Both the position numbers and the translations under genes were made by a program. From NCBI GenBank assembly GCA_944390685.1, contig CALXQL010000016.1:17408-81407 (forward strand): DNA of 64,000 nucleotides, given 5' to 3'. Shown in pieces: positions 18,261 to 55,957 of the stretch; position 1 is the first letter of the stretch; each line of letters begins with the position of its first letter. The notes under the pieces were generated by a model. The model searched no databases. It had not been told where the DNA came from and saw only the letters and a program-made list of their open reading frames with translations. Source of the stretch: an uncultured Alphaproteobacteria bacterium. GTDB lineage: Bacteria > Pseudomonadota > Alphaproteobacteria > Rs-D84 > CACZYB01.

Positions 18261-21200
18261 ATTCGGTTATTTCTATATTACTTTTTTTTGAAAATTTATT
18301 TTGCCACCACCATTTGAATTTTGCCCTTAATTGTACTCCTATCAATATCATACATGGAGTTACAATAAGAGTTAATATGGTTGCAAATCCCAATCCAAAT
18401 ATAACTGATTTTGAGAATGCTGCCCACATATCCATTGATGGGGATCCTATGGTTATATCGGCATTTATGAAGTCTATATTTAATTTCAATGCCATAGGAA
18501 CCAATCCCAATATTGTGGTAGTAGTTGTTAAGTATACTGGACGAATTCTTTGTAATCCAGTTCTTATCAATGCATCAAATGGATCACTTACTTTTTGTTT
18601 TATTTCATTATATGCATCAATTAAAACTATGTTATTATTAACAACTATACCAGCAAGAGATACTATTGCCAATCCAGTCATAACGATTGAAAATGGATCT
18701 TGCATTATAACTAATCCCAATACAACACCAATGGTTGATAGCAATATTGAAAATAGTATAATAAAGGTATCATAGAAACTATTGAATTGGGCTAGAAGTA
18801 TGAACCACATCAACATAATTGCAATGAAAAATGCCAATATAACAAATCCCATACTTTCTTGGCTATCTTCATCTTGTCCTGCAAAGGTGATTTCTATGCC
18901 ATCTTTTGGTGGAGTATTTTTTACATAGTTTTTCAATGCTGATATTTTTTCTGTTGCAAATGTTCCTTCTTCAACGTCTGCGGAAATTTTTATGATTCTT
19001 TTTCCATCAATTCTTTGAATTAAATTTACCTTTGGTTTTGGTAAAATATCAACAAAGGTTGATAGTGGAACTGAATTTATATTATTTGTTACAACATATA
19101 AATTATCAATCATGTTTAATGCTCTGAATTTTTTTGGGAAACGAGCAATGATATTTAATTCTTCATCACTATCAACTGGCATATATGTAGAAACAATTGC
19201 TCCTCTAGTCATCATTTGGACTATACCTCCAATAGATGCTATGTTTACACCAAATTTTGCCGCTTGGGCTTGGTTAATTTGCATTTCCCATTGGATACCA
19301 GGAAGTGGAAGAGTATCCTCTATATTTGTGAAACCTTTGATTTCATTCATCGCATTTCTTATATATTTATAACCTTCATTTATTAAATCTTGGTTATCAT
19401 TTTTTGCGGAAATTTCAATTTCAATAGGTTTTCCACTTACAGGTCCTTTATCTTCTTGTTGAATTTCTATGATGACACCGGACATATTTGCAAGAGTTTT
19501 TTCCATTTCATTTATTATTACATTTGCACGAGGGCGTTCTTGCCAATCTTTTAATTCAACTTGGATATATCCAATCACATCTTCGGCAGCATTATGAGAT
19601 TTTGCTCCGCTTCGTGAGTAGACATTATCAAAATATGGTAATTGATATATTAGATTTTCCGCTTGTCTTATGTATGCAGATTTTTCTTCTATAGATAAAT
19701 TACCTCTGGCATGAACATTTATATTTATGAAATCAGGTTCGGATTCAGGGAAGAATTCAACACCTACACCGAATTTTGCATATATGAAAAATGATGCAAA
19801 TAATGTGATGATTATAGTTATAAATACTTTCCATGGACGAGAAAGGGCAAATTTTAAGGCTTTATAATATACTTTCATATAACCTTTTAATTTATAGTAT
19901 TCGCCGTTTTCACTTGCCAATATTTGCACTTTTTCTTCATCTTTTATTGCACCTGCCTTTCCAAAAAGAGCACCCAAAACAGGTATGAATATCAAAGCAA
20001 CTAATAAAGATGCAGTTAAAACACAAATAACTGTTATTGGTAAGAATTTTAAGAATTCACCTATTACTCCTGGCCAAAACATTAATGGAGCAAAAGCTAC
20101 AAGAGTTGTTAATGTTGATGATATTACTGGCATAGCCATACGATCAGAGGCTTCGGCATAGGCATCAACTTTGTTTGCTCCTTCGGTCATTTTTTTATCG
20201 GCATATTCGGTTATAACTATGGCTCCATCAACAAGCATTCCAACAGCCAAAATTAAACCAAAAAGAACAACCATATTTATTCCCATACCTAAAAAGCCTA
20301 TAAATAATATACCAAGTAGGAAAGATATAGGAATTGAAAGTCCAACCAATAATCCGGTTCTTATTCCCAACATTAATACAACACAGACTATAACCAAAAT
20401 CATAGATGAAATAACATTGTTTTGTAAATCGGTTAAGTTATCATTTATTTTTTCAGATGAGTCATTTGTTAATTGTATTATTACGTTATCTGGAACGGTT
20501 TGTTTTGCTTCTTCAACAACTTTTTTTACCATTGTTAATATGTTTATTGTATTTCCTCCGGAACGTTTTTTTATTTCCAATGATAAACTTGGTTGTTGAT
20601 TCATACGGACATATTCTGTTGCGTTTTCAAAATTTCTTCTTACTTCTGCGATATCTTCTATTTTAATTACGGCGTCGCCTTCAATTTTAATTGGAAGTTT
20701 TTTGACGTCTTCAACATCTTCTATTAATCCAGGAACTTTGATAGGGAAAGCACCTTTTGATGTTTCTATATTTCCAGCTGGAATAAGTATGTTTGATGAT
20801 GCCAAAAATGAACTTACATTTGATAAGGCAAGTTTATATGAATCAAGTTTTGCTGGATCAATTAAAATTTCAATTTGTTCAGCTCTTTCTCCTCCTAATT
20901 CAGCTTCTAAAACACCTGGAACCGCTTCAATTGTATCTTGAAGATTTTCAGCAATATCCATCAATGTTTTTTCTGGTGCTGTTCCATAGATATTTACGAT
21001 ACCTATTGCGAATTCAGAAGTGTTTATTTCATCAATTACAGGTTCATCAATATCTTTTGGCATATATTGTTTTGCTTTATCAACAGCATCTTTTGTTTCA
21101 CGAAGTCCAATTTCAGGATCTGATCCTACTTCAAATTCAAGAATTACTTGGCAAAAACCTTCGTAGCATTTACTATTGGTTTCCTTTAATCCATTGATTG

Positions 21201-21417
21201 TTTTAAATTCTTTTTCAAGAGGTTTTGCAATTAAGCGTTCACCATCTTCTGGTGATATTCCCATATATGTTACGGTTGTTATAACCATAGGTATGTTTAC
21301 ATCTGGAAAAGATTCCTTTGGTAGACTATTATATGTCATAAGTCCCGCAATTGTGCATAAAAATAAACTGAATAAGAATACGCGGGTTCTTCCTATTGCA
21401 ACCTTTACAATTGACAT
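18259..21417 (-). CDS. RND-family multidrug efflux permease (AcrB/AcrD/MexB-like)
   Basis: 1052 aa with 12 TM segments and two large periplasmic loops; lies downstream of a membrane-fusion-protein gene. Confidence 0.85.
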   Translation of the reverse strand: MSIVKVAIGRTRVFLFSLFLCTIAGLMTYNSLPKESFPDVNIPMVITTVTYMGISPEDGERLIAKPLEKEFKTINGLKETNSKCYEGFCQVILEFEVGSDPEIGLRETKDAVDKAKQYMPKDIDEPVIDEINTSEFAIGIVNIYGTAPEKTLMDIAENLQDTIEAVPGVLEAELGGERAEQIEILIDPAKLDSYKLALSNVSSFLASSNILIPAGNIETSKGAFPIKVPGLIEDVEDVKKLPIKIEGDAVIKIEDIAEVRRNFENATEYVRMNQQPSLSLEIKKRSGGNTINILTMVKKVVEEAKQTVPDNVIIQLTNDSSEKINDNLTDLQNNVISSMILVIVCVVLMLGIRTGLLVGLSIPISFLLGILFIGFLGMGINMVVLFGLILAVGMLVDGAIVITEYADKKMTEGANKVDAYAEASDRMAMPVISSTLTTLVAFAPLMFWPGVIGEFLKFLPITVICVLTASLLVALIFIPVLGALFGKAGAIKDEEKVQILASENGEYYKLKGYMKVYYKALKFALSRPWKVFITIIITLFASFFIYAKFGVGVEFFPESEPDFININVHARGNLSIEEKSAYIRQAENLIYQLPYFDNVYSRSGAKSHNAAEDVIGYIQVELKDWQERPRANVIINEMEKTLANMSGVIIEIQQEDKGPVSGKPIEIEISAKNDNQDLINEGYKYIRNAMNEIKGFTNIEDTLPLPGIQWEMQINQAQAAKFGVNIASIGGIVQMMTRGAIVSTYMPVDSDEELNIIARFPKKFRALNMIDNLYVVTNNINSVPLSTFVDILPKPKVNLIQRIDGKRIIKISADVEEGTFATEKISALKNYVKNTPPKDGIEITFAGQDEDSQESMGFVILAFFIAIMLMWFILLAQFNSFYDTFIILFSILLSTIGVVLGLVIMQDPFSIVMTGLAIVSLAGIVVNNNIVLIDAYNEIKQKVSDPFDALIRTGLQRIRPVYLTTTTTILGLVPMALKLNIDFINADITIGSPSMDMWAAFSKSVIFGLGFATILTLIVTPCMILIGVQLRAKFKWWWQNKFSKKSNIEITE

Positions 21418-21438
21418 AGTTATCTCCTTATTTAAAAA

Positions 21439-22569
21439 TTATTTATTATCAGTTAATACTTGTAATTTTTCCTCATTTATAAATGTTGGGTCTACTTCTT
21501 CCCCTTCTTTTACAAATTCGCTTCCACTTATAATTACATTTGCTGTGTTTGGAAGTCCAGATACCCAAAGGCCTCCCTGTTCTTCCTTTATTATTTCAAC
21601 TGGATAAAAATGAACAATATTTTTATCATCAATTGTTTTAACACCAACTTCTCCATTTTCATTTAATGTTAGGCAGGATGAAACACCCAATTTTATTGCG
21701 GAAATTGTATCAAGAGGGAATAATATTTCGGCTGTTAAACCTTCTACTATTTTATTATCCTTATTATTTGCTTCTAATTCCAAACTGAATGTCCTTGTTG
21801 AAGTATTTGCAATTGAACTTATATATGTAAGCATTGCTTCAATAGTTTCTTTGTTTGAAAGATTAACTTTTGCAATAACACCTTTTTTTACACGGCTTAT
21901 ATATTTTTCTGGAATTTCCGCCTTTATTTTTATTGGATTTAGATTTACAAAAACACCAATATTTTCACTTGAACTTACATAAGAGCCTTCTTCTATTTTT
22001 AAATCATCAACAACACCATCAAAAGGGGCTCTTAAAATAGTATGATCTATATCCAAAATTATTTGTTCAAGGTTTGCTTTTGCTGATTTATATGTTGCTT
22101 CGTTAGATACAAATTCAACACGAGAAATTAAGTCTTGGGATAGTAATGTTTTAGCTGTATTATATTCAATTTCGGCTTTGTCTTTTGCTGCTTGAGCTGC
22201 ACGAAGTTTTGCCATTCTATCTTCCATTGCAAGAGTGATTATTGCATCACCTTTTTTTACATATTGTCCTTTTCTTTTATTTATTTTTTTTACTATACCA
22301 GATGTACGGATTTTTAAATCAACTTTTTCCATTGCTTCGGTATGTCCGTATATTAAAACGTCGGAAACAATAGGTTTTGATGTTAATTGTTCAACATTTA
22401 CTTTCATCTTTTTTATTTCTGGTTTTGGGGTTGGAGTTGATGTGGAAAAAATCATTCCAATTGAAAACCATAAAATCAAAGCAAATATTATTAAATATAC
22501 GAATTTGTTAGAACCTTTTTGTTGACCTAATCTTGAATTTTTATATCTTTCATGTAATTTTCTTATCAT
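21439..22569 (-). CDS. RND efflux periplasmic adaptor (membrane fusion protein, AcrA/HlyD family)
   Basis: N-terminal TM anchor, coiled-coil hairpin and lipoyl/beta-barrel domains; lies immediately upstream of the RND permease. Confidence 0.75.
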   Translation of the reverse strand: MIRKLHERYKNSRLGQQKGSNKFVYLIIFALILWFSIGMIFSTSTPTPKPEIKKMKVNVEQLTSKPIVSDVLIYGHTEAMEKVDLKIRTSGIVKKINKRKGQYVKKGDAIITLAMEDRMAKLRAAQAAKDKAEIEYNTAKTLLSQDLISRVEFVSNEATYKSAKANLEQIILDIDHTILRAPFDGVVDDLKIEEGSYVSSSENIGVFVNLNPIKIKAEIPEKYISRVKKGVIAKVNLSNKETIEAMLTYISSIANTSTRTFSLELEANNKDNKIVEGLTAEILFPLDTISAIKLGVSSCLTLNENGEVGVKTIDDKNIVHFYPVEIIKEEQGGLWVSGLPNTANVIISGSEFVKEGEEVDPTFINEEKLQVLTDNK

Positions 22570-27042: not shown

Positions 27043-28188
27043 ATGGCTAATGAAGAAAAGAGACCTTCTTTACTTAGAAGTGCAGAAGAAATGAGGAAAA
27101 AAATGGGATTTGATGATGCTACTGATAAATTAGAATCTCAAATGCCAAATGAGGAACTTCTAGTTGAGGAAGAACAAACTCAAGATGATGAATTCACTCT
27201 TGCTTTGCAACAAATAGGGGCTGTGGCAAGTGAAGGTATGAGTAATAAAGTCGTTGAGAAAATTTTGGATTTTTATAATTCACAATATGAAAATAAAGAT
27301 AAACTTAAAGAAAAAATTATTACTATTTCTAATTGGTGTAGGGATACTATTACTAAAATAAATCAAGAAGAAGAGGATTGGAATAATAAGGAAACTCTAC
27401 GACATAATTTAAATTTAGTTATGAATTATTTGGAAAATGGGGATATTTCTCATCAAACTTTTGATACAATATTATCTTATCTTAATACTTTTAATGTTGA
27501 AAATATTTTTGAAGGTTTTTTATCTGAAGCTCTTGTAAATTCCGGATATATGGATGAACAAGTTGAAAATGAAAAAAATGAAATTTTGCCTATTTTATCT
27601 TATGTCCTTGATAATGTTTTAGATGAGGATAAGGATAATGTGAAAGTTGATGAAGATGCCGATTTAGATGAAGAAAATTATACTTTTTTTGATAAAAAGG
27701 TAAAAATTTCTGATAATTCAAAAGTAAAATTTAAATCAGAAAGTGGTAGATTTGATTCTAATGTCATTGGAGATTCAAATAAAAATTCTTTGGTATTTTC
27801 TCATGATAAAGGTGTTAATGCTCCACAAAATGCTGTAAATTCTGTTTTTTATGGAATGATTGATTTTATGGAGGAGAAAAATCAAATTCCTTTTGAATTT
27901 AATATCAATACCAAAACAGAAGAATTTAAAAAATCATTATTTGAAATTATTAAATTAAATCAACAAAAGGATATACTTATTGATAATGATGATATAAATT
28001 CAATTAATAAAGATGATAAATTTAAAGATAAAGTTTCAAAATTTATTATTGATGGTGTGGAAATTTCTTACAATCAATTTAATACATTTAAAAATTTTGA
28101 AGATTTTAAAAATTTCCAATCTAAAGTTAATAAAATGGATACTCAAAATAATGAATTACCAGAAATTCTATCTTCAAGAGAAAGGTAA
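27043..28188 (+). CDS. hypothetical acidic (D/E/N-rich) protein with no recognisable domain
   Basis: ORF of 381 aa with an RBS; no signal peptide. Confidence 0.5.
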   Translation: MANEEKRPSLLRSAEEMRKKMGFDDATDKLESQMPNEELLVEEEQTQDDEFTLALQQIGAVASEGMSNKVVEKILDFYNSQYENKDKLKEKIITISNWCRDTITKINQEEEDWNNKETLRHNLNLVMNYLENGDISHQTFDTILSYLNTFNVENIFEGFLSEALVNSGYMDEQVENEKNEILPILSYVLDNVLDEDKDNVKVDEDADLDEENYTFFDKKVKISDNSKVKFKSESGRFDSNVIGDSNKNSLVFSHDKGVNAPQNAVNSVFYGMIDFMEEKNQIPFEFNINTKTEEFKKSLFEIIKLNQQKDILIDNDDINSINKDDKFKDKVSKFIIDGVEISYNQFNTFKNFEDFKNFQSKVNKMDTQNNELPEILSSRER

Positions 28189-28299: not shown

Positions 28300-30111
28300 A
28301 TGAAAAATACAGGAAAATTCTTTATTTTTACACTTGCTTTTATTCAAGTTTGTATTTCTTTTCAAAGTGATATTTTTGCACAAAGTAAGAAAAGAGCAGT
28401 GAAATCAACAAAAAAAACTACATCTACAAGAAGTAAGTTATCCTCTCCTACTGCAGGTATTGTTGAAGATACTTCAAGGGCAAATTTGAGTACACGTGCT
28501 GGTCGTGTGCCTTCTGGAACTGGATCTTCAACTTCTTCTACTCCTGTTGATGAAGATTCTGCTGCACAACTTTTGGCTGATAATTTACAGGCTTGTATTC
28601 AATCTCAATGTGATGGAGATGTGCCTTTTGAAAAATGTTTTAAAAGTGGACAAGCAGAGTATTTGGTTCGTATAAACACTACTTGTAAAGCAATGTATGA
28701 TGGTGCTTCATCCGATGTGGTTAGGGTAAAGGCTATGAATCTTCTTAATACAAAAATTAAGGGATATTTTAATGAATCTTGTTCTTCTGCGGGTGGTAAA
28801 GTTTCCGGAAATGATTGTAAGGTGGATATTTGTTATTTCGCAAAAGGTGGTGAAGGTAAAAATGCAAGAGAAGTAAAAAGATGTAATTCATATAAAATTG
28901 GGCAATCTTTTACTTGTTCTGCAACTACATTTGGTCTTAATGATCAAGATTTGGAATATAATGAGGGGTTGTCTTCTACGGATATTGCTACTTTGGTTCA
29001 ATCCGGTATGGGGATTTTAAATGGTGCAATTACAACAACTATGAGTGCAATTGATGCCGCTCAAGCGTCAAAGGAATTAAGACTTAAAAGTAATGTCATA
29101 GGAAGAAACTGTGTTTGTGATTGGAGTTTTGATACTAATACTTTGACTTGCTCTTCATCAAATTGTAAAGAAACTTGGACAAAGTGTGGTACGGAAGGTA
29201 AAGCAAAAGAATGTAAAGGGGATAATAAAAAAGTTGATAGTTATGGGGTTTATTATCTTGTAGCAGATAATACAGAATATAAACCTTTAGATCCTAACAA
29301 CCTTTGTTCAAAAATTAAAGTGGGTAGTAATGAAACTAAAAGTGGTTCTTGTCAAATTGAAATTCCAGAATTGACAGAGGTAGCAAGACTTGAAAAAGAG
29401 GCGGAGCTTTACAAAAAATATACTGATTTTAACAAATTAAAGTTGAATGATAATATCAATAATATAGTTAATGTTGCAACTCAACAAGCTGCATTTGCAC
29501 AATTTGGTAATGATATTGGTCTTTCAACTCAAACAAATGAGATTGATTGTGGTGTGCCAGTTGGAGTTGTGATGGGAAATAGTTTGGGACAATTAGTTGT
29601 TGATTATAATAAGAATAATCCATCTTCTAAAGTTACCTCATCTTGTCAAGTTTCAAATAATGGTTTATATGTTTGTAAAAGAGATAGTTCAAATTGTATG
29701 AATGCTGTATTTAGAAATGGAACATATATTGCAACAAATTCAACAACACCTAATATTGGTAATGTAGGTAATGCTGTAAATACTTTGACTACTTCTTTGG
29801 CAAATGCTAATCTTTCCACTAATAATTATTCTTCTGCTGTGTCAGAATATAATGAGATGGTTAAGTCAGCAAATGAAAAGAAAAATGAATTAGAGGAATT
29901 GAAGAATCGTAAGGAAGATGGTCTTTCAAATGCAATTGCCTCTGGAACTGCGACTTTGGTTCAACAAGGTGCTGCAATGACTACAACATTGGTATCCGCA
30001 GCAAATAATAAAGGTGTTATGAGTGGTGCTTGTTATTTAGGGGATCCTCAAAATGGTGGTGTGTATTTTGCAAGTGATGGACAATCAAAGAAATTAACAT
30101 GGAAAATGTAA
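28300..30111 (+). CDS. hypothetical secreted cysteine-rich protein (signal peptide, S/T-rich linker, about 34 Cys)
   Basis: N-terminal signal peptide MKNTGKFFIFTLAFIQVCISFQSDIFAQ, numerous Cys residues and asparagine-rich segments. Confidence 0.55.
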   Translation: MKNTGKFFIFTLAFIQVCISFQSDIFAQSKKRAVKSTKKTTSTRSKLSSPTAGIVEDTSRANLSTRAGRVPSGTGSSTSSTPVDEDSAAQLLADNLQACIQSQCDGDVPFEKCFKSGQAEYLVRINTTCKAMYDGASSDVVRVKAMNLLNTKIKGYFNESCSSAGGKVSGNDCKVDICYFAKGGEGKNAREVKRCNSYKIGQSFTCSATTFGLNDQDLEYNEGLSSTDIATLVQSGMGILNGAITTTMSAIDAAQASKELRLKSNVIGRNCVCDWSFDTNTLTCSSSNCKETWTKCGTEGKAKECKGDNKKVDSYGVYYLVADNTEYKPLDPNNLCSKIKVGSNETKSGSCQIEIPELTEVARLEKEAELYKKYTDFNKLKLNDNINNIVNVATQQAAFAQFGNDIGLSTQTNEIDCGVPVGVVMGNSLGQLVVDYNKNNPSSKVTSSCQVSNNGLYVCKRDSSNCMNAVFRNGTYIATNSTTPNIGNVGNAVNTLTTSLANANLSTNNYSSAVSEYNEMVKSANEKKNELEELKNRKEDGLSNAIASGTATLVQQGAAMTTTLVSAANNKGVMSGACYLGDPQNGGVYFASDGQSKKLTWKM

Positions 30112-32798: not shown

Positions 32799-33233
32799 AT
32801 GAGTGAAAAACTTTTTATTTATACCGATGGCGCGTGTAGTGGCAATCCTGGTAAAGGGGGGTGGGGGGCTTTGTTAATTTATGGTGAACATAGAAAAGAA
32901 ATCTATGGTGGTGAATATGATACCACCAATAATCAAATGGAATTAAAAGCTGTTATTGAGGCTTTGAAATCCCTTAAAAAACCTACTTCAATTGATTTAT
33001 GGACGGATAGTCAATATGTAAAAAATGGTATTACAGAATGGATTACCAATTGGAAAAAAAATGGTTGGAAAAATGCTCAAAAAAAGCCTATTAAAAATAA
33101 AGAATTATGGTTGGAACTTGATAATCTTGTTTCTTTACATGATATTTCTTGGCATTGGGTCAAGGGGCATAATGGACATACGGAAAATGAACGTGTTGAT
33201 GAATTGGCTAGGTTAGGTATTAGTGAATTGTAA
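32799..33233 (+). CDS. rnhA: ribonuclease HI
   Basis: [20 protein letters not shown] and TNNQMEL motifs; 144 aa. Confidence 0.9.
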
Positions 33234-42437: not shown

Positions 42438-43355
42438 ATGAGAAGGAATTCAAATTTTAATTATATAATATTGTCGCTTCTTGTCGTGTTTATGCTTCAA
42501 GGGTGTGATATTTACTCTTTTAATAAATTTGCCGATACTGTTAATGAAAAAACATCTAATTTTATTGAGTCTGTCATCAATTATAATTATAGTGAATTTT
42601 TTTATAAGTTAAAAATGGCATATAAAACAACAAAACGTGAAAGATATCCTGAAATACAATTCATTGATATTGCTACTCAAAGAGATGGACAATTATATGC
42701 TTACAATGGTGTGATTGAAGAATGTAAATTGCTTCCTTGTAATATAAAGGAAAGCATTATAAATAGAAATACTATATTTCCAGAAAATACTATGGCAAAG
42801 TTGGTGATTGAGATACCGGTTGTATCGGCTCAGGCTTTTTTAGATGCCATTTCAAAATATGGTAAAATTGTAAAAAATAAAAATCAAAAAGATATGTTTA
42901 TCTCAAAAGATTTAGATTATTACAATAATGAAATTCAATCTTTACAGCTTATTAAGGATAATATTGAGGCTAATTTATCAAAAAAAGATGTTTTTAATCC
43001 AAAACAAGTTGAGGAGTTGGAAGAGGAGTTATCTTCTATCAATAATAAATTACTTTATTTGACAAGTGATATAAAATATTTAAATGATGTGCAATTAAAT
43101 AAGTTGATTAAAATAAATATCAATAAAGAATTTAACTCAACAAGTAATAAAGTAAAAACTAAATTACAGAATTTTATTTATTTCTTAAGTGATTATTTAC
43201 ATATAATTATTTTAATAATTGCTTTTGTGATTATTTATAAAACTATTAAACTTTTAAAAAATGGTATAGTGTTATTGTTTAAAAGTATTAAAAATAGAAA
43301 AAAGGTTGTAAGTCAGGTTAGCGTTTCAAGCGAGCCTCATTTACCAAAATTTTAA
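42438..43355 (+). CDS. hypothetical lipoprotein (lipobox MLQGC) with a C-terminal TM segment
   Basis: Signal peptide plus Cys, and a hydrophobic helix HIIILIIAFVIIY near the C-terminus. Confidence 0.5.
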   Translation: MRRNSNFNYIILSLLVVFMLQGCDIYSFNKFADTVNEKTSNFIESVINYNYSEFFYKLKMAYKTTKRERYPEIQFIDIATQRDGQLYAYNGVIEECKLLPCNIKESIINRNTIFPENTMAKLVIEIPVVSAQAFLDAISKYGKIVKNKNQKDMFISKDLDYYNNEIQSLQLIKDNIEANLSKKDVFNPKQVEELEEELSSINNKLLYLTSDIKYLNDVQLNKLIKININKEFNSTSNKVKTKLQNFIYFLSDYLHIIILIIAFVIIYKTIKLLKNGIVLLFKSIKNRKKVVSQVSVSSEPHLPKF

Positions 43356-44029: not shown

Positions 44030-45601
44030 ATGGTTTATATTTTAAAGATAAGGAGAGAGAAAATTTTAAATTTTATTAAACATACTATTTTAAATACTTC
44101 AAAAAATCTTTGGTTTTTTGTTAGTTGTATGTTTGTTTCTTTTTCTTCATTTGCAAACTTGCCTGTAAAACATAATAATTATGTTGATACAATTAGAAAT
44201 ATTGATTTTTATTCCAATAAAGTAAAAGATAAGTTCGCAAATTCTTTGTCTTATGAATATAAATCACTTGCTCTTTATAAATATCAATATGCAAATGATT
44301 TAGATGATGCAAATCATTTTGCAATTAAGGCTTTGTCCGCTTATCATGGGGAAAGGGTCAAGCCTGATAATATTTATAAAAGAAATCTTCCTTTGAAAAA
44401 TATTGTCGCTATTAGTAATTCTTATGATGAATTATTAAATATTTTGGGAACGGATATTAAAAATGAATATCCTCAATTGATGGCGGAAGCTCAAGTTAAA
44501 TTTGATTGTTGGGTGGAAAGTGAAGAAGCAGGTTTGAAAAAACAAGCTGTTAATTGTAGAAATCGTTTTATGAAAGCAAAGGATAAATTACTTGGTATCA
44601 TTTCTGATGATTGTTTCAAATGTAAAGAACAACTTAAAAAGAAAGAAGAAACAACTATTTCAAAAGAAGATAAACTTAAAAATTTTGATGGTCAACATCT
44701 TAACCTTCCAAAGTGGCCTAATATGCCTATGATACGGAATAATCCTCCTAAACCTGTTATAATGAATCAAACAAGTAATGGTTTCATTGTTGCAAATAAT
44801 AATAATCAAGCTAGTTTAAAAGAAATTAAGGCTATAAGTGAATCTATTAAACAACTTGAAAAAGAAATATTTAAATTGAGAAACCAAAAACCTTCTACTC
44901 AAGTTTTAAGAACTTCTCAAGGTGAAAAAACTATTGTCGTATCAGATCCAACAAATGCAAATAAAACTGATATTTATGAATTAAAAGAAATTTTGGCTGA
45001 TATGCAAAAACAGATAAATTCTGCCAATAAGGGGGATATTGCTGAATTGAAAAATGCTTTGATGCAACTTCAAATGCAATTAGATGAGTTAAGGCTTGCT
45101 ATACCAGAACCAATTGATAATACCGATATCATTCGTGAAGATATTATGTATTTGGAAGAGGAGATTTTGGCTTTGTCTCAACAAATTGAAAATATTGAAA
45201 TGCCTGAATGTGAAATCCCTTATAATCAAATGAATCAAGATGATTATATGGAAGAAGAAATTTTTGATGAACCTTCTTCTTTATTACCTTATGAAGTATT
45301 TTTTGATTGGGATAAGGATAATGTGGATTATAAGTTTTTGCCTCAATTAAAAGATATTGTTAATAAAGCTTTGTCTTCAAAAGAAACTATTATAATTCAA
45401 GGTCATACCGATACTTCGGGTGATGAAAATTATAATAAAGATTTATCAAATAGAAGGGCTTTGGCTGTTGCAAAAATTATTGAATCTTTGGGCATTCCTT
45501 CATCAAAAATCACTATACAAGCGATGGGGTCAACAGATCCAAAAATTCCAACGGAAATTGGTGTCAAAAAACCTGAAAATAGAAGAGTTGTTATAAAATA
45601 G
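44030..45601 (+). CDS. OmpA-domain protein (N-terminal signal/anchor, central coiled-coil, C-terminal OmpA peptidoglycan-binding domain)
   Basis: C-terminal QGHTDTSGDENYNKDLSNRRALAVAKII...NRRVVI OmpA signature. Confidence 0.65.
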   Translation: MVYILKIRREKILNFIKHTILNTSKNLWFFVSCMFVSFSSFANLPVKHNNYVDTIRNIDFYSNKVKDKFANSLSYEYKSLALYKYQYANDLDDANHFAIKALSAYHGERVKPDNIYKRNLPLKNIVAISNSYDELLNILGTDIKNEYPQLMAEAQVKFDCWVESEEAGLKKQAVNCRNRFMKAKDKLLGIISDDCFKCKEQLKKKEETTISKEDKLKNFDGQHLNLPKWPNMPMIRNNPPKPVIMNQTSNGFIVANNNNQASLKEIKAISESIKQLEKEIFKLRNQKPSTQVLRTSQGEKTIVVSDPTNANKTDIYELKEILADMQKQINSANKGDIAELKNALMQLQMQLDELRLAIPEPIDNTDIIREDIMYLEEEILALSQQIENIEMPECEIPYNQMNQDDYMEEEIFDEPSSLLPYEVFFDWDKDNVDYKFLPQLKDIVNKALSSKETIIIQGHTDTSGDENYNKDLSNRRALAVAKIIESLGIPSSKITIQAMGSTDPKIPTEIGVKKPENRRVVIK

Positions 45602-47092: not shown

Positions 47093-47150
47093 TTATAGAT
47101 AAGTTTTTTAAAATGTGATATACTTTATTTATATAAATAAGGAGTATGTT

Positions 47151-47702
47151 ATGAAATTTAAATTAGTTTATACTGGAGAATTAAAGATAAATCCAAAAAA
47201 AAGAAGTCAACATTTGCATGATATTCGTATGGCTTTGTCACCACAACTTGAAAGGTTAACAGAAATTTCTCCTTATAATACTATTAAAGAAAAAATGCAA
47301 AAAAGACCTTTGAAGGGGATAAGAGAAATTGATGGTGCTAAATTTTTCCCTATTATTAGACCGGAACTTAATTTAGTGGCTGAACTTGATATACAAATAC
47401 TTCATCCGGAATTATTGGAAACTCCTCGTGCAGATATTGATAATAGAATGAAGACCTTACTTGATGCGTTGAAAAGACCTCAAAGTGCACATGAATTGTG
47501 TGAAGGAATAAATAAAGATGAAGTTATTTATACATTGCTTGATGATGATCATTTGGTAACAAAAATGCTTATCAATACAAGTCATCTTTTATATAAAGAA
47601 TTGAATCCTAGTCCAAATAGGGATTATGAATTGTTGGTTATTATCACTGTGAATATTAAGGCGTCTAAGGGGACTACGGATAATTTGGCAATAATCGTTT
47701 AA
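47151..47702 (+). CDS. hypothetical protein (183 aa)
   Basis: ORF with an RBS (AAGGAGTATGTTATG). The start was taken at the internal Met of the track ORF 47115..47702. No domain recognised. Confidence 0.45.
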   Translation: MKFKLVYTGELKINPKKRSQHLHDIRMALSPQLERLTEISPYNTIKEKMQKRPLKGIREIDGAKFFPIIRPELNLVAELDIQILHPELLETPRADIDNRMKTLLDALKRPQSAHELCEGINKDEVIYTLLDDDHLVTKMLINTSHLLYKELNPSPNRDYELLVIITVNIKASKGTTDNLAIIV

Positions 47703-47919: not shown

Positions 47920-48621
47920 TTAATCAATTGTTGTATTATTCAAAAGCCAATCTTTAAATTCAACTACATTATTAACTTCGGCATCAAATTTTCTATCTGA
48001 TGGAGTGTCTGTTGTAAATCCTGGACGGCAACGAACTGCATGCATACCAACTTTTAAAGCTGTATCACAATTGAAAATTCTATCATCAACCATAACAGTT
48101 TCTTCTGGAACAAGATTATATTTTTTGAGGCATTCTATTATTCTTTGTTCCTTTTCACCGACCATAGCTTTTCCATGAGAAGCATCACTTGTTGATTTTT
48201 GATGTTCTACAACTTCAATAGTTACGAAAGATAATTCAGGTCCAAGTGTATCTGCAATCATTTTTCTTTTTATTTCAGCATTGAAACCAGATGACATTGT
48301 AAATTGTCTATATCCTTTTTCATGAAGTTCTTTCAATGTTTCAACAACATTTGGGTAAAGAGGTCTATCAAAATAAATTTCACCAGAGTTATGGCAAAAA
48401 TCGTGATTGAATTCCTTTCCCATTGTTGGATGAGATGTTAATTCTAATGAACCAAATTTTGGATCAATTGGTAGAGCTTTTGGTAAATCTTCCCATTTTA
48501 AGTCTTTATATTGATCCTTATAATTTGGATGTTCTGTTAAAAAACGATAATAGGCATTATCAAGGTTTGCAAGAACCTCGTCAACATCCCAAAATATATT
48601 TTTTATTATAGGTTTTGACAT
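47920..48621 (-). CDS. HAD-superfamily hydrolase (5'-nucleotidase-like)
   Basis: WDVDEVLANL motif I (DxDxV) and a C-terminal VDDRIFNCDTA motif. Confidence 0.6.
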   Translation of the reverse strand: MSKPIIKNIFWDVDEVLANLDNAYYRFLTEHPNYKDQYKDLKWEDLPKALPIDPKFGSLELTSHPTMGKEFNHDFCHNSGEIYFDRPLYPNVVETLKELHEKGYRQFTMSSGFNAEIKRKMIADTLGPELSFVTIEVVEHQKSTSDASHGKAMVGEKEQRIIECLKKYNLVPEETVMVDDRIFNCDTALKVGMHAVRCRPGFTTDTPSDRKFDAEVNNVVEFKDWLLNNTTID

Positions 48622-48691: not shown

Positions 48692-49154
48692 TTAATGAGA
48701 GTTTTCACTTACTGAATGTAATAAGTAGTTAACATCTATGTTTTCCCTATCTATGAGATTTTGAAGATGTTGTTCATCAAGGATATTATTTTTATAAATT
48801 TGAACTGATGTTAAACCTGTATTACATACAAGTGCAGATTTTATGCCGTAATTATTAGCACCTTTTATATCATTTTTTATAGAATCACCAATCATTAAAA
48901 TCCTATCTTTTGGATAAGGTAAATCACTTAGTGCATTTTCAAAAGTTATTTTTAATGGTTTACCAAATTCAACTATTTCTAAACCTGCTTTGTAAGGGGG
49001 TTCAGTAAATAATTCTTTATATATTTTTTTGTCAATATTTATTACTTCTTTTATTATTGCATTTTGATTTTTTGAATATATACTTTTAGAGATTAGGAAT
49101 TGAGAGAGAAAATGAAATTTTTTAAATACTTTTATATATTTTTCTTTATTTGTT
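48692..49154 (-). pseudogene. C-terminal fragment of a HAD-IA hydrolase with no N-terminal catalytic half. The track gives only 48692..48895; the frame stays open upstream to 49154 and overlaps the start of the outer-membrane-protein gene.
   Basis: By hand translation, ...EFGKPLKITFENALSDLPYPKDRILMIGDSIKNDIKGANNYGI matches the HAD motif III region. There is no DxD motif and no ATG upstream. Confidence 0.4.
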
Positions 49155-50491
49155 TTTCAAGTAATCTTGTTTATGCAAGTGATAGTAAAAATCAAGGAGA
49201 TAATTCCGTCGTTGTTGCAAAAGATGGGGTTATATCCTTAACACCTGTGCAGATTATAAATCTTTCTAAAAAATTTATTGAAGATAAGAATTTTCATGAT
49301 GCTAAAATGCTTTTATTAAAAAGTTCATTTAATGTTTTGGAATTGGAAATTGAAAGACTTCATTTATTGGCTCAAATCGCTATTTTAGAAGATAATATTG
49401 ATACGGCAATTGATATTTATAGATTTATTCTTGATTATCAGCCAAATATTTCTTCCATTAGATTTAAACTGGCTCAACTTTATATGCTTAAAAAATCTTG
49501 GTATAAAGCGGATTATCATTTTCGTTTGGCTGCAACTGATAAAGGTTTACCAGATGAAGTGAAAATGGAAATTGCAAAGGCTTTGTTTATTACAAGACAA
49601 AATAAAAATTGGAATATATGGTTTAATATTGGTGCGGCTCCGGATAATAACATAAATAATGCTCAATCAGGTGAGCAGTGTATTGCAACAATTTTTGGGG
49701 TTTTATGTAATCAACTTCCTTATCCTGAAAAAGCTATTGGCTTTAATACTTCATTTGGTGGAAATTATGAATTCATTTTAAATGATAATTGGAGAATTAG
49801 AAATGAGTTAGTTGTGTCTAATTCCATGTATGATAAAAATGAATATGATGATTTATATATTGGATATAATATAGGTCCAAAATATGTTTTTAGAAAAGGT
49901 GAAGTTGCTTCTTATTTAACAACATATAGAAGATGGTTAGATCATTCTCCTTATAGTTATAGTGTTGGTGTAAGAGTTGATGCAAATTATGATTTAACAA
50001 ATAGATTGAGTGTTGGAGCAGGGCTTCGTTTTTCACCAACTTTTTATGATGATTATGGAGATTATCTTGATGGAAATGTCAGTGGTATTGATAGTAGATT
50101 AGTTTATTCTTTTGATGCTTCTAAATATATTATTTTTAGAAATTATTATGAAATGGAAAAAACTGAAGATCCAATTTATTCTAATAATAGATTCTTTTTA
50201 TCTTTGGGCTTTGGTATTGAACTTCCTTATGGATTCTTTGTTTATTTGGAACCTTCTGTTTTATTTACAGATTATAAGGAAGAAAGACCATTCATCAAAG
50301 ATTTATCTTTTGAAAATATTAAGGAAGAGGATATTACAAGAAAGTATATGATTTCTTTTTCAAATAGAAAAATTAAATTTTGGGGATTTACTCCGACATT
50401 TTCTTATACCTATACAAATAAAAGTTCAAATGTTTGGCAAAGAGAATATAAGAAATCCGCTTTTGAATTTACTATTAATCAAAGATTTTAG
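49112..50491 (+). CDS. outer-membrane protein with an N-terminal TPR-like helical domain and a C-terminal beta-barrel ending in Phe; the architecture is Slam/DUF560-like (surface lipoprotein assembly modulator)
   Basis: Signal peptide (FFICFSSNLVYA), helical TPR-like repeats (residues ~60-150), then an aromatic/Gly-rich region of alternating beta-strand pattern, and a terminal ...EFTINQRF. The start was taken at the second Met. Confidence 0.5.
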   Translation: MKFFKYFYIFFFICFSSNLVYASDSKNQGDNSVVVAKDGVISLTPVQIINLSKKFIEDKNFHDAKMLLLKSSFNVLELEIERLHLLAQIAILEDNIDTAIDIYRFILDYQPNISSIRFKLAQLYMLKKSWYKADYHFRLAATDKGLPDEVKMEIAKALFITRQNKNWNIWFNIGAAPDNNINNAQSGEQCIATIFGVLCNQLPYPEKAIGFNTSFGGNYEFILNDNWRIRNELVVSNSMYDKNEYDDLYIGYNIGPKYVFRKGEVASYLTTYRRWLDHSPYSYSVGVRVDANYDLTNRLSVGAGLRFSPTFYDDYGDYLDGNVSGIDSRLVYSFDASKYIIFRNYYEMEKTEDPIYSNNRFFLSLGFGIELPYGFFVYLEPSVLFTDYKEERPFIKDLSFENIKEEDITRKYMISFSNRKIKFWGFTPTFSYTYTNKSSNVWQREYKKSAFEFTINQRF

Positions 50492-50504
50492 TTAGTTTTG
50501 GATA

Positions 50505-50702
50505 TAAAAAATCACTTAAAAAGTGGTCATCTTTAAAAGTGTTAGATATTTTTTCTATCAAAGTATAAATATATAATATCACGATTCGTGGATTTTTGCA
50601 AGTAAGAAAATATTCTTTTTATTATTGAATGAAGGTTAAAAATATGATATAATTCCTTTTGTAATGATATTGAAATAACCAAAACAAAAGGAGGAAAAAT
50701 AA
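50505..50702 (+). promoter_or_regulatory. conserved lipoprotein-family upstream element, copy C
   Basis: Near-identical to copies A, B and F. Confidence 0.7.
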
Positions 50703-51678
50703 ATGAGAAAAACAATATCACAGATAAGTCTAATAACAATGTTATCATTATTAAGTGCATGTGGTGGAGGAAATCTAGCTGAAAACTTGCCAAATCTACC
50801 GGGGGGGAACAGAAATAGAACCTAAACCAGAACCTAAACCAGAACCGGAAGAATTAACATTTGATAAAATATTCCCTAATAAAGATGCACTTGCCGGTAT
50901 GGTGGGAGGAGACGGAGAGCCAGCTTTTTCTATAAAAGATGCAGAAGGTGACCAACCTGAAAAATTAGTGTTTAAAAATCTACCAGAGTGGGAATTCCCC
51001 ATAACAAGTTTTGAAGATAAAAGTGATTTTTATTATGCATATATAGAATCTGATACAAAATCTGATGATGAAAATTATTATAAAACTTATTATAATTTAG
51101 TATTACCTAAAGATGTTAATATTTCTTATGGAAGTTTCTTTCTTGTAGGTTCTGGACAATTTGATTCTGAAACTAATAATGGTGTGAATGGATATAGATT
51201 TTCTCCAAGTTTTCAATATGATCCATCAAAAAAAATTGATGTTGCAACTTTTGAAAATGATATGACTTTTAAGGGTAATTCCATTTTAGGAATAACATCA
51301 ATTTATGGAAATTCAAAAGAAGATTATGCAATATTAAATGGTGATGCAAATTTAACATTGAGTAAAGATGGTTCAATTAATGCTAAAATAGAATTTGATG
51401 ATTTTTATACAATTAACTTTAATAATAATAGTGATGATAATTTTATCACATTAACTGATAAAAATAAGATTTCAGATAATATAAAGAAAGTTATTGGAGA
51501 GATAGAATTTGATGGAAAAAATGAAGTAAAAGTAGATAAATTACGTTATGATTCTTATGTCATATTAGGAAGTGATAATAAAATTCCAGAAGAAATTTTA
51601 GGGACCTATGGTTTTTCATGGGGTAATGAAGAAAAAGGTTATTACGCCACTGGATCCTATGGTGTAAAAAAACAATAA
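50703..51678 (+). CDS. surface-lipoprotein family member 3, phase-variable. It is out of frame at a G7 tract: the signal-peptide ORF from 50703 stops at 50822 and the mature domain resumes in the +1 frame (track ORF 50899..51678).
   Basis: The lipobox MRKTISQISLITMLSLLSACGGG is followed by G7 at 50801-50807. Removing one G fuses it to the ORF 50899..51678, which carries the family motifs (FDDFYTINF, KISDNIKKVI, PEEILG, YGVKKQ). Confidence 0.65.
50801..50807 (+). repeat. homopolymeric G7 tract (phase-variation switch) in the lipoprotein gene
   Basis: Counted directly from the sequence. Confidence 0.85.
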
Positions 51679-51705
51679 ATGTTTATTTTTTATCATTTTT
51701 TAAAT

Positions 51706-51728
51706 CCCGCCGTTGTGCGGGAATTTTT
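51706..51728 (+). terminator. rho-independent terminator (CCCGC-CGTTGT-GCGGG-AATTTTT), identical to the one at 16988
   Basis: Identical hairpin sequence. Confidence 0.65.
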
Positions 51729-51732
51729 ATAT

Positions 51733-51779
51733 AAAAAATCACTTAAAAAGTGGTCATCTTTAAAAGTGTTGTTTTATTT
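51733..51779 (+). promoter_or_regulatory. orphan partial copy D of the lipoprotein upstream element (operator palindrome only), abutting tRNA-Ser
   Basis: AAAAAATCACTTAAAAAGTGGTCATCTTTAAAAGTG is identical to the 5' end of the element; the rest is absent. Confidence 0.6.
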
Positions 51780-53562: not shown

Positions 53563-53660
53563 ATTGCAAAACTTTGCGAATCATGATATTATATATTTAT
53601 ACTTTGATAGAAAAAATATCTAACACTTTTAAAGATGACCACTTTTTAAGTGATTTTTTA
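53563..53660 (-). promoter_or_regulatory. orphan partial copy E of the lipoprotein upstream element (reverse orientation), lying 3' of lipoprotein gene 4 with no gene of its own
   Basis: Its reverse complement matches the copy-B variant (...CACGATTCGCAAAGTTTTGCAATAGGG). Confidence 0.6.
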
Positions 53661-53666
53661 TTAGAT

Positions 53667-54557
53667 TTAATTTTGAAAATTATTTATTTTTTTTACACCA
53701 TAAATTCCATCAATAAAAGTTTTTTTATCATTATTTTCTATATTAAATGTAAAATTACCAACAACTTCTTCAGGATTTTTGTTTTCACCTAAAATATTGA
53801 ATTGATGATTTTTTAATTTTGTTTTATAATTATCGTGAACTAATGCTAAATTATCATAAAAATCTTTTGGAATTTTATTGTTATTAAATAATGTGATTTC
53901 ATTTTCTTTTATATTTACAGAATAAAAATTATCAAAATTCATTGTTAAATTGTATTGTTCGTTTGGATATAAAATTAAATTAGCATTTCCTGTAATAGTT
54001 TCATCATGATTATTAATATTAACATTATTTTTACTAATAGAGAAAAAATTAAGAAGTACTTTACCATTAAAATTGATTGTTTCATCTATTTTATTTATAA
54101 TAGTATCATTATTAATAGTTAGTAATGGGTAAAAAATTACTTGATTATATCCATTTGAAGTATATCCCAGTAAAGCTATATTTCCATAAGATAAATCTAA
54201 ATCCTTTATAAAACTAATACTTGCTTCACCATATTCAACCGAGTTAACAGCTTTATAATAATTATCTTTATTTTCAAAACTAGATAATGGAAATGAATAT
54301 AAATCTGGATTTATGGAAACTGATAAAGTTTCTTCCCCATCAACTTCATTTAAATTCATTGTAAAATTATCTAATGTAGAAAAAGAGGAAATTTCCTCTT
54401 TATTATAAAAAATATCTTGGAATTCCAATTCATCTTTGTTTTGTGATATATCATTATTGCTTATTTCAAATTTTGATAAATTAGGTAGGTTTGATCCACC
54501 ATTTCCACTACAAGATGCAAGTAATAAGTATAATACTAAATATAAATTATTTTTCAT
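53667..54557 (-). CDS. surface-lipoprotein family member 4 (lipobox LLASC)
   Basis: Signal peptide plus Cys and the family motifs (YNLTMNFDNFYSVN, NPEEVVG, IYGVKK). Confidence 0.7.
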   Translation of the reverse strand: MKNNLYLVLYLLLASCSGNGGSNLPNLSKFEISNNDISQNKDELEFQDIFYNKEEISSFSTLDNFTMNLNEVDGEETLSVSINPDLYSFPLSSFENKDNYYKAVNSVEYGEASISFIKDLDLSYGNIALLGYTSNGYNQVIFYPLLTINNDTIINKIDETINFNGKVLLNFFSISKNNVNINNHDETITGNANLILYPNEQYNLTMNFDNFYSVNIKENEITLFNNNKIPKDFYDNLALVHDNYKTKLKNHQFNILGENKNPEEVVGNFTFNIENNDKKTFIDGIYGVKKINNFQN

Positions 54558-54732
54558 AAATAAATTCCATAAATTATCATTATTATATCATATTTTTAAC
54601 CTTCATTCAATAATAAAAAGAATATTTTCTTACTTGCAAAAATCCACGAATCGTGATATTATATATTTATACTTTGATAGAATTTATATCTAACACTTTT
54701 AAAGATGACCACTTTTTAAGTGATTTTTTATT
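54558..54732 (-). promoter_or_regulatory. conserved lipoprotein-family upstream element, copy F (reverse orientation), in the divergent intergenic region shared with the RND efflux operon
   Basis: Its reverse complement is near-identical to copy C through ...GAAGGTTAAAAATATGATATAAT. Confidence 0.7.
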
Positions 54733-54814
54733 TTCTAGGAATATTGACTTCTTGTATAAATAAATAGTTTTTTATATTCTCTTCTTAATTGATAATTCAA
54801 TTTGGGAGGGAGTG

Positions 54815-55954
54815 ATGCAAGATAAGCATTCAATTAAAAAAAGTATTTTTGGTGCTTTGATATTTTTAATCTTTATTATTGGAGGATATTTGATTTTTTC
54901 CTCCTATAAATTTAAAAACATTGTAAAGGTTGATAATAGATTACCTGTTGATGTTTTAGATTTACATTCAAAAGATGTTTTAGTCCAACGCAAATATGTT
55001 GGCTTTATAACACCAATTAATGCTGTTGATGTATTACCTTTTGTATCAGGTTTCATTGATAAAGTTAAAGTTGTGGGTGGGCAAGATGTAAATATAAATG
55101 ATATTTTATTTGTCATAAATCAAGATGAATATAAGGCTTTACTTGATGCATCTTATGCTCAAGTATTAAATGCAAAAGCTAAACTTGAAAATGCAAAACT
55201 TTATTATGAACGTATGAGTAAAGCTGGGGGAAGGGCTGTTTCAAAAACTGATTTAGATAATGCAAAAACCGCTTTCTTATCAAGTGAAGCAGAACTTGCT
55301 CAAGCAATTGCAAATTATGAAAAAGCAAAAGTGGATTATAATTATACTATCATTAAAGCTACTATTTCCGGAATTGTGGGTGATGTTAATATTTCAAAGG
55401 GGGATTATGTATCTCCTCAAGGTAAGGCTTTATTAAAAATTATTCAATATAATCCTATTAGAGTTGTATTTTCCATAAGTGATAAAGAATATATAAATGA
55501 AGTTAGTAAAAATGCCAATAAAAAACCTTTTAGTGATTGGAATATAAAACTTCGTATGGCAAATGGTGAAATATTTAATGAAATTGGTAAAGTTAAGTTT
55601 TGGGATAATGAAGTGGCTTCATCCACATCTTCTGTTAAAGTGTTTGCCGATTTCAAAAATCCAAATAGGGTATTATATACAAATGCCTATGTAGATGTAA
55701 TTATGGAACGTATGGTAAAAAATGCTATTTTAGTTCCTCAAAGTGCCGTATATCTTAATGATAATCAAGATTATGTATATATAGTTTCTAATGATGATAT
55801 GCCAAAAAAAGTATCAATTGATTTAGGAGATCAAGTCGATAATTACTTTGTAGTAAATAAAGGACTTAATGCAGGGGATAAACTTATTCTTAATAAACTT
55901 TCTTTACAAGATTTGAATAAAAAACTTTCTTTTGAGATAAAAAATATGGAGTAG
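54815..55954 (+). CDS. RND efflux periplasmic adaptor (membrane fusion protein)
   Basis: N-terminal TM anchor and a coiled-coil (LLDASYAQVLNAKAKLENAKLYYERM); lies upstream of the RND permease. Confidence 0.75.
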   Translation: MQDKHSIKKSIFGALIFLIFIIGGYLIFSSYKFKNIVKVDNRLPVDVLDLHSKDVLVQRKYVGFITPINAVDVLPFVSGFIDKVKVVGGQDVNINDILFVINQDEYKALLDASYAQVLNAKAKLENAKLYYERMSKAGGRAVSKTDLDNAKTAFLSSEAELAQAIANYEKAKVDYNYTIIKATISGIVGDVNISKGDYVSPQGKALLKIIQYNPIRVVFSISDKEYINEVSKNANKKPFSDWNIKLRMANGEIFNEIGKVKFWDNEVASSTSSVKVFADFKNPNRVLYTNAYVDVIMERMVKNAILVPQSAVYLNDNQDYVYIVSNDDMPKKVSIDLGDQVDNYFVVNKGLNAGDKLILNKLSLQDLNKKLSFEIKNME

Positions 55955-55957
55955 TAT

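Follow-up and report, generated by a model that had tools for sequence, protein, structure and literature searches.

Does a gene for a surface lipoprotein assembly modifier (Slam), the outer-membrane protein of type 11 secretion (T11SS), accompany its own lipoprotein cargo in an uncultured gut alphaproteobacterium, and is the production of that cargo switched on and off? The question is raised by a stretch of 64,000 nucleotides (hereafter the window), positions 17,408 to 81,407 of contig CALXQL010000016.1 in assembly GCA_944390685.1, from a bacterium of the order Rs-D84 (CACZYB01). In the outer membrane, Slam serves as the translocon through which TbpB-like lipoproteins pass while unfolded, with Skp as holdase (PMC9090332). 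An earlier note, drawn up from the letters of the window, had read a 460-aa open reading frame (ORF) at 49112..50491 as a Slam/DUF560 protein with a signal peptide, an N-terminal region resembling tetratricopeptide repeats (TPR) and a C-terminal ...QRF, and the gene behind it as a phase-variable lipoprotein from a family of four whose C-terminal ends resemble the last barrel strand of fHbp and TbpB. From our follow-up, the window very probably holds a Slam system with four surface lipoprotein cargoes, two of them switched by poly-G tracts, that together form a diversifying repertoire.

A Slam homologue and its lipoprotein neighbours

The ORF at 49112..50491 (+) runs from ATG 49112 to a stop at 50491 and encodes 459 aa, one fewer than had been counted. 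Its identity as a Slam/DUF560 protein is borne out by Pfam: PF04575 SlipAM (formerly DUF560) matches residues 167-459 (49610..50488, +), the membrane barrel domain, over the full profile (positions 1-288 of 288; E=2.8e-30, 106.3 bits, cutoff 22). By inspection of the translation, the N-terminus is a hydrophobic Sec-type leader, MKFFKYFYIFFFICFSSNLVYA followed by SD, giving a predicted Sec signal peptide at residues 1-22 (49112..49177, +). The protein ends ...TINQRF, with the aromatic last residue expected of an outer-membrane barrel; across 25 homologues the QRF varies little or not at all. Between leader and barrel lies a predicted periplasmic TPR region (residues ~47-160; 49250..49591, +). 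On the single sequence PF24575 TPR_Slam stays under its cutoff (26.5 bits at residues 87-134, cutoff 35.2). A profile of 25 homologues (alignment A5) matches solved TPR proteins at positions 73-134 with E-values from 1e-10 (OGT TPR) to 4e-41 (multi-repeat designed or consensus TPR), and many Slam homologues have precomputed TPR_Slam or TPR_19 matches. The leader, the TPR-like region and the QRF end described earlier were all recovered. A sequence search found no solved Slam structure. The predicted domain layout is that of published Slams, in which a periplasmic TPR domain precedes a 14-strand DUF560 barrel (PMC5449769).

Using tblastn we found exactly four members of the lipoprotein (LP) family in the window, in agreement with the earlier count. 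LP-A (16015..16980, +; 321 aa, lipobox LSGC) and LP-D (53667..54557, -; 296 aa, lipobox LASC) are intact, while LP-B (17215..18214, +) and LP-C (50703..51678, +) are broken at a G tract. LP-C is the gene next to Slam. Its start, ATG 50703, lies 211 bp past the Slam gene behind a GGAGG site, and its N-terminus, MRKTISQISLITMLSLLSA followed by CGGGNLAENLPNLPGG (opening CGGG), is a signal peptide with a lipobox, as expected had the note been right about a lipoprotein gene directly downstream. All four copies carry a signal peptidase II (SPII) lipobox (LSG/C, LTA/C, LSA/C and LAS/C for LP-A to LP-D), each followed by a Gly/Pro-rich linker on inspection. The C-terminal ends are AYGGKVNK, SFGAVRK, SYGVKKQ and IYGVKKINNFQN; the pattern proposed before, [YF]G(G/A)(K/V)x(K/Q), was loosely right, the real core being [YF]G-x-[KV]-[KRV].

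Judged from database searches, the family appears very narrow. Word-indexed searches returned 4 and 3 proteins, and an exhaustive HMMER search of 1.84 billion representatives yielded 14 clusters. Distant members are likewise lipoproteins, which start ...ACGGGG... and end FG[GV]K[RK]. In the alignment the C-terminal domain stands out as conserved; it contains L.Y.DFG, F.G.A, G.A.LT, FD.[FW]Y and G...P.E.VG and closes with FG.K. The lipoproteins had no match in NCBIfam, and the family profile had none among PDB sequences at E up to 10.

We modelled LP-D with AlphaFold2. A 4-sequence alignment gave a predicted local distance difference test (pLDDT) score of 54 and was discarded; the 16-sequence alignment that was used gave a mean pLDDT of 79.4 and values mostly >85 across residues 70-293. 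In the model, seven strands between residues 65 and 148 are succeeded by eight at 161-290, a predicted fold of a variable-type N-terminal beta handle and an 8-stranded C-terminal barrel. The top Foldseek hit in the PDB was the TbpB C-lobe (5kkx, E=2e-6), followed by TbpB, fHbp, Vibrio harveyi HphA and LbpB; cargo chains reached probabilities of 0.99-1.00, and V. harveyi HphA a TM-score of 0.52 on the target. Structural neighbour scores were 12.2 for fHbp, 11.6 for the TbpB C-lobe, 11.5 each for the NHBA C-domain and V. harveyi HphA, 11.1 for Hpl, 11.0 for Acinetobacter baumannii HphA, 10.9 and 10.2 for HpuA, 10.5 for PmSLP-1 and 10.4 for fIbp. Matches to two-domain cargo span 160-180 residues and thus cover the handle besides the barrel, whereas generic 8-stranded membrane barrels (OmpW, NspA, OmpA) scored lower, with ~100-120 residues aligned. 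The C-terminal barrel is what Slam cargoes have in common (PMC5449769; 10.1101/2024.09.26.615229). By its predicted fold the family belongs to the Slam-cargo class, while by sequence it falls outside the Pfam families TbpB_B_D and Lipoprotein C; the fHbp/TbpB-like barrel of the earlier note therefore stands as a predicted fold, and the Pfam TbpB_B_D or Lipoprotein_5 match that would have gone with it was not found.

Linkage of this family to Slam is conserved in relatives. A profile (A3) was built from window and database sequences only, with no sequence from the loci under comparison, and was run on ORFs of at least 150 aa from 22 related Slam loci, where it matched 23 of 300 ORFs. At 15 of the 22 loci a family lipoprotein gene shares the strand of Slam and ends <400 bp upstream of it, and one locus (L023) has four tandem family lipoprotein genes upstream of Slam. 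A profile from the four window genes alone selected largely the same linked genes with weaker scores. The linkage on which the earlier note relied is thus found in relatives too. For comparison, 52% of 353 Slam homologues with curated neighbourhoods adjoin a lipobox gene, and about half of Slams adjoin lipoproteins with an 8-stranded barrel (PMC5449769).

The identical Slam protein is present on ENA and Logan metagenome contigs. We retrieved 319 Slam homologues, of which the named ones are called 'DUF560 domain-containing protein' or 'surface lipoprotein assembly modifier' and come from metagenome-assembled genomes (MAGs). A scan of GTDB genomes gave Slam relatives of 39-66% identity in MAGs labelled Alphaproteobacteria and Candidatus Enterousia, with sheep, goat and yak gut samples among their sources. 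Enterousia belongs to the order Rs-D84, gut bacteria with reduced genomes, mostly <1 Mbp, that may depend on a partner organism (PMC12306168). Three relatives from the same scan lie in MAGs labelled Elusimicrobia, including Candidatus Avelusimicrobium; the Slam homologue there has 41-44% identity and a family lipoprotein ending AAYGM(K/Q)KQ stands immediately upstream of it (L019 5653-8405, L020 8537-11263, L021 8552-11263). If the binning is correct, this pair lies outside the Proteobacteria, to which the literature assigns Slam/T11SS. Another MAG, LOHA32_bin.034, has two Slam paralogues with 66% and 46% identity to the window protein (L004 and L006), and a family lipoprotein adjoins the closer one only.

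Poly-G tracts in two of the four lipoprotein genes

The lesion of LP-C is a G7 tract at 50801..50807 (+) in the linker-coding region. A stop follows eight codons past it, and the frame shifted by one base stays open to 51678, so that the mature protein lies in the +1 frame past the tract; G6 or G9 would be in frame, and with one G fewer the gene encodes a 324-aa lipoprotein. LP-B carries a G10 tract at 17313..17322 (+), at the homologous linker codon, where G9 would be in frame. Apart from these two, the 64 kb contain no G or C run of at least seven bases, with 0.22 (G7) and 0.001 (G10) expected from composition, and GGG accounts for just 7.6% of Gly codons. By analogy, such tracts are the hallmark of contingency loci: the switching of hpuA depends on a poly-G tract within the coding sequence (PMC3786947), HpuA is Slam2 cargo (PMC5449769), and in AT-rich Campylobacter G8-G11 tracts are hypermutable (PMC3401435).

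Two related possibilities were tried and rejected. An upstream alternative start that would give the post-tract frame its own signal peptide does not work, as stops close that frame upstream of the tract; one database ORF, P0138, runs from a mutated ATG across G10 and lacks a signal peptide. The run G6TG6 at 32856-32868 lies in frame inside rnhA and has no connection with the tracts. In two more distant relatives, G7 runs precede the lipoprotein gene beside Slam instead of lying within it (L022 453-459; L024 8580-8586 and 8691-8697), which may represent promoter-located phase variation.

Strain comparison added further alleles. The conspecific strain scaffold_111 has 98-99% DNA identity to the window, and its three tract genes LP-X, LP-B' and LP-C' are all G10. 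The window LP-C allele is G7 in all three contigs that carry it, and at the same site the conspecific strain (L032) has G10, so that the two strains compared differ by exactly three Gs. Further short contigs imply G10 through 41-aa N-terminal peptides or the read-through ORF P0138. In this small sample of related alleles, seven distinct poly-G alleles were retrieved, six G10 and one G7, and all have 3n+1 Gs. The HMMER search of 1.84 billion representatives and a cluster look-up held no in-frame full-length form of the tract genes; the tract flank had no match in a scan of JGI metagenome contigs, and look-ups of the 268-aa LP-B ORF found no record. The label 'phase-variable' in the earlier note is not supported as it stands: the improbable tracts are there, but all the tract lengths found were out of frame.

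The interrupted genes nevertheless look maintained. Past the tracts the frames stay open for 235-268 codons, with a chance of ~1e-10 for random sequence of this composition. Between strains the alleles are 49% (LP-B) and 90% (LP-C) identical, whereas Slam and seven housekeeping genes reach at least 98.7%; dN, the nonsynonymous divergence, is 0.060 for LP-C against 0.002-0.007 in the same genes, about ten times the housekeeping level. The ratio of nonsynonymous to synonymous divergence (dN/dS) is 0.62-0.84. These features argue from sequence that LP-B and LP-C are not decaying genes. They are most likely phase-variable, with the off state dominant in the sampled populations.

Promoter modules, cassettes and neighbouring genes

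Alignment of upstream regions shows that a nearly identical module of ~150 bp precedes all four lipoprotein genes. It contains a 34-bp element, AATCACTTAAAAAGTGGTCATCTTTAAAAGTGTT, which holds the inverted repeat CACTT-AAA-AAGTG and has six exact copies in the window where none is expected by chance: four on the plus strand (15847-15880, 17019-17052, 50510-50543 and 51737-51770) and two on the minus strand (53622-53655 and 54692-54725). A 35-bp element has five window copies, also exact repeats. The predicted promoter core, from alignment and promoter scan, is TTGAAT or TTGATA, a spacer of 17 and TATAAT with a TG extended -10. The module of LP-A spans 15847-15997 (+), that of LP-B 17019-17200 (+) and that of LP-D 54582..54725 (-). 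In the module of LP-C (50510..50653, +) the 34-bp element at 50510-50543 and the 35-bp element at 50554-50588 precede TTGAAT-17-TATAAT with a TG extended -10 at 50625-50653. Since each cargo gene has its own near-identical strong promoter module, the four probably share their regulation and are transcribed independently of Slam.

The repeats also delimit the genes. A terminator-like hairpin at 51705..51722 (+) follows LP-C, with the same hairpin after LP-A, and the exact 34-bp repeat at 51737..51770 (+) closes the LP-C cassette. Downstream of LP-D an orphan module (53577..53655, -), a direct repeat of 54647-54725, points towards the end of udg and is followed by no lipoprotein gene; a cassette was probably lost there, leaving the module as its remnant. 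With the 34-bp repeat after LP-C and the partial module after LP-D, each lipoprotein gene is bracketed by direct repeats. Scaffold_111 is without window positions 53663-54633, which hold LP-D, and keeps one module copy at the junction (L032 10481-10581); it has an extra poly-G lipoprotein cassette between a merR-like gene and LP-A (L028 2596-3800). These differences point to the repeats as the sites of cassette gain and loss, for which homologous recombination would be the simplest mechanism. The 34-bp element may bind a regulator, act as a substrate for recombination, or do both.

The rest of the window looks like ordinary chromosome, with a guanine-cytosine (GC) content of ~28% along the whole 64 kb and genes that include glmS, leuS, transketolase, PBP1A, xseA, pgk, thyX, lipopolysaccharide (LPS)/sugar genes and two RND efflux operons; a Pfam scan of 26 window ORFs gave housekeeping, LPS/sugar and RND-efflux genes. 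Both lipoprotein clusters directly adjoin an RND operon (18259-22569, -, and 54812-60506, +), each with a membrane fusion protein and an AcrB-type pump and the second also with an outer-membrane factor; the proximity may be coincidence. Upstream of Slam, a HAD-family hydrolase looks split into a 233-aa ORF (47920-48621, -) and a 67-aa ORF (48692-48895, -), the latter with a weak precomputed Hydrolase_like match on metagenome contigs; the two could be a pseudogene or two genes. A 523-aa OmpA-family protein (44030-45601) has a long low-complexity, coiled-coil-like middle before its C-terminal OmpA domain and is encoded as two genes on a metagenome contig (L002). Sizeable ORFs without a significant Pfam match lie at 27043-28188 (381 aa), 28300-30111 (603 aa), 42438-43355 (305 aa) and 47115-47702 (195 aa), the last with a weak RusA-like match alone (E=0.034).

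Proposed pathway, alternatives and comparison with known systems

We infer surface display of the four lipoproteins, their dependence on this Slam and reversible switching at the tracts, as parts of the following pathway. Slam would be exported by Sec and sit in the outer membrane with its TPR domain in the periplasm and its DUF560 barrel in the membrane. LP-A to LP-D would be made with SPII signal peptides, acylated at the lipobox cysteine, carried unfolded across the periplasm and passed through or flipped by Slam, which would recognize them via the C-terminal 8-stranded barrel; the one Slam gene in the window would thus serve four cargo genes. At the surface, lipid anchor and Gly/Pro-rich linker would hold the protein with its variable beta-sheet handle outward, where the handle may bind some host, partner or nutrient ligand. 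Slipped-strand mispairing at the tracts would toggle LP-B and LP-C, of which the sequenced populations would be in the off state with one G too many. Whole cassettes would be gained and lost via recombination between promoter modules, and LP-B and LP-C diversify fast between strains. Switching, diversification and cassette turnover together could yield a variable repertoire of surface antigens or ligand-binding proteins.

Several observations count against this pathway. The four lipoproteins and the members of their alignment have no Pfam match at E up to 1, TbpB_B_D (PF01298) and Lipoprotein_5 included, and ten Slam-adjacent lipoproteins of relatives have none at E up to 0.1. An hhalign comparison of the family with an fHbp sequence aligned the expected ...G..EV.G... 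motif without significance (E=0.037, probability 1.4%). Gene order in the window differs from that of the relatives, with LP-C downstream of Slam under its own promoter where in relatives the cargo gene directly precedes Slam. The Pfam scan of 26 window ORFs turned up neither a TonB-dependent receptor nor any other partner gene, and a bipartite receptor of the TbpA/HpuB type is therefore not indicated locally. Lastly, 0/7 tract alleles are in frame, which free on/off switching does not predict.

The uniform allele lengths would be explained directly if 3n+1 Gs were the normal, selected state: the tract would be a conserved decoding signal, and LP-B and LP-C would be expressed constitutively at a set level through programmed +1 ribosomal frameshifting on rare GGG codons or through RNA-polymerase slippage. 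Such recoding fits the seven distinct alleles, the change of exactly three bases between strains that keeps the frame relation, the result of the searches for an in-frame form, the rarity of GGG and the conservation of the downstream frames as open. However, a frameshift stimulator is not recognisable, as no stop or rare codon stands right after the run and no Shine-Dalgarno-like sequence a few bases upstream, and programmed transcriptional slippage is documented mainly for A/T runs. The alleles are moreover few and come from close strains with near-identical 5' ends, so G10 could have spread by descent or gene conversion. Campylobacter tracts tend to gain bases at G8 and to lose them at G11 (PMC3401435), a pattern that, if the on state is selected against, could leave G10 as the usual length of the off state; such a bias, with gene conversion among the 5' ends, may account for the G10 mode here. 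We consider recoding unlikely; if true, it would be an unusual device tied to Slam cargo in reduced-genome gut bacteria.

LP-B and LP-C might also be pseudogenes decaying in a reduced genome, with incidental tracts and only LP-A and LP-D functional. Both genes are out of frame in every assembly, the genomes of relatives are reduced (PMC12306168), and the hydrolase gene just upstream of Slam is split. Decay is hard to reconcile with post-tract frames that stay open at 28% GC even in alleles 49% and 90% identical, with dN/dS below 1, with an intact promoter, ribosome-binding site, signal peptide and lipobox, and with a sole lesion at the same homopolymer in every copy; we regard it as extremely unlikely. 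Only marginally easier to credit, and still very improbable, is that the DUF560 protein exports some other substrate, that the lipoproteins face the periplasm and that their adjacency is coincidental. Some DUF560 clusters seldom co-occur with barrel cargo (10.1101/2024.09.26.615229), and the cargo gene in the window has its own promoter and an unusual position, but the same lipoprotein family adjoins Slam at 15 of the 22 related loci and the structural neighbours of LP-D are almost exclusively proven Slam cargo. A Slam system with four cargoes, two of them phase-variable, hence remains by far our favoured account.

A Slam beside a TbpB-fold lipoprotein is a textbook arrangement, a correct but unsurprising result, and the locus leaves the understanding of the Slam mechanism unchanged. 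Slam/T11SS and TbpB-fold cargo are vaccine-relevant and have been studied nearly all in Neisseria, Moraxella, Pasteurellaceae, Acinetobacter and Xenorhabdus; the locus adds uncultured Alphaproteobacteria of the gut, relatives of Candidatus Enterousia (Rs-D84), with a complete pair of Slam and cargo. What is new is this host lineage, a cargo family invisible to domain models, the organisation in cassettes with promoter repeats that are gained and lost at the strain level, the uniformly 3n+1 tracts, and the homologous Slam-lipoprotein pair in Elusimicrobia MAGs. As current Pfam and NCBIfam models do not detect the family, annotation-based surveys of T11SS cargo would miss it. Shared-promoter cassettes, poly-G tracts and fast divergence suggest that surface variation matters for persistence in the gut.

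The closest likeness is to Neisseria meningitidis, where Slam2 with HpuA and Slam1 with TbpB, LbpB and fHbp likewise combine a TPR and DUF560 protein, encoded beside its lipoprotein, with a cargo of Gly-rich anchor linker, beta handle and C-terminal 8-stranded barrel. One Slam serves several cargoes there, as would the one Slam for the four cargo genes of the window, and hpuA in Neisseria has a poly-G tract in its reading frame, as LP-B and LP-C do (PMC3786947). The differences from Neisseria lie in the host, here an uncultured alphaproteobacterium of the gut with a reduced genome, in the cargo sequences, for which no similarity to HpuA, TbpB or fHbp can be detected, in the one repeated promoter module that the four cassettes share, and in the tract lengths seen, which are all out of frame; unlike for HpuA/HpuB, a TonB-dependent partner was not found among the Pfam-scanned ORFs. 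Contingency loci of Campylobacter and Neisseria resemble LP-B and LP-C in carrying runs of G7-G10 early in the coding sequence of genes for surface proteins, and Campylobacter is likewise AT-rich and host-associated (PMC3401435). Such loci are documented in on as well as off variants, whereas here 3n+1 alleles alone were found.

The PmSlam-PmSLP and fIbp cargo of Pasteurella multocida shares 8-11% sequence identity with the lipoprotein in structural alignments. To our knowledge, PmSLP is under no poly-G control. Hemophilins (HphA of A. baumannii and V. harveyi, and Hpl, with the HsmA-type Slam) have a fold similar to the predicted one and are secreted and not lipidated, whereas all four lipoproteins of the window carry a lipobox. 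A further parallel, drawn from the literature alone, is the T11SS pair NilB-NilC of Xenorhabdus, an animal-gut symbiont, in which a DUF560 and TPR protein is likewise paired with a surface lipoprotein for host association (PMC8406197, PMC9100927).

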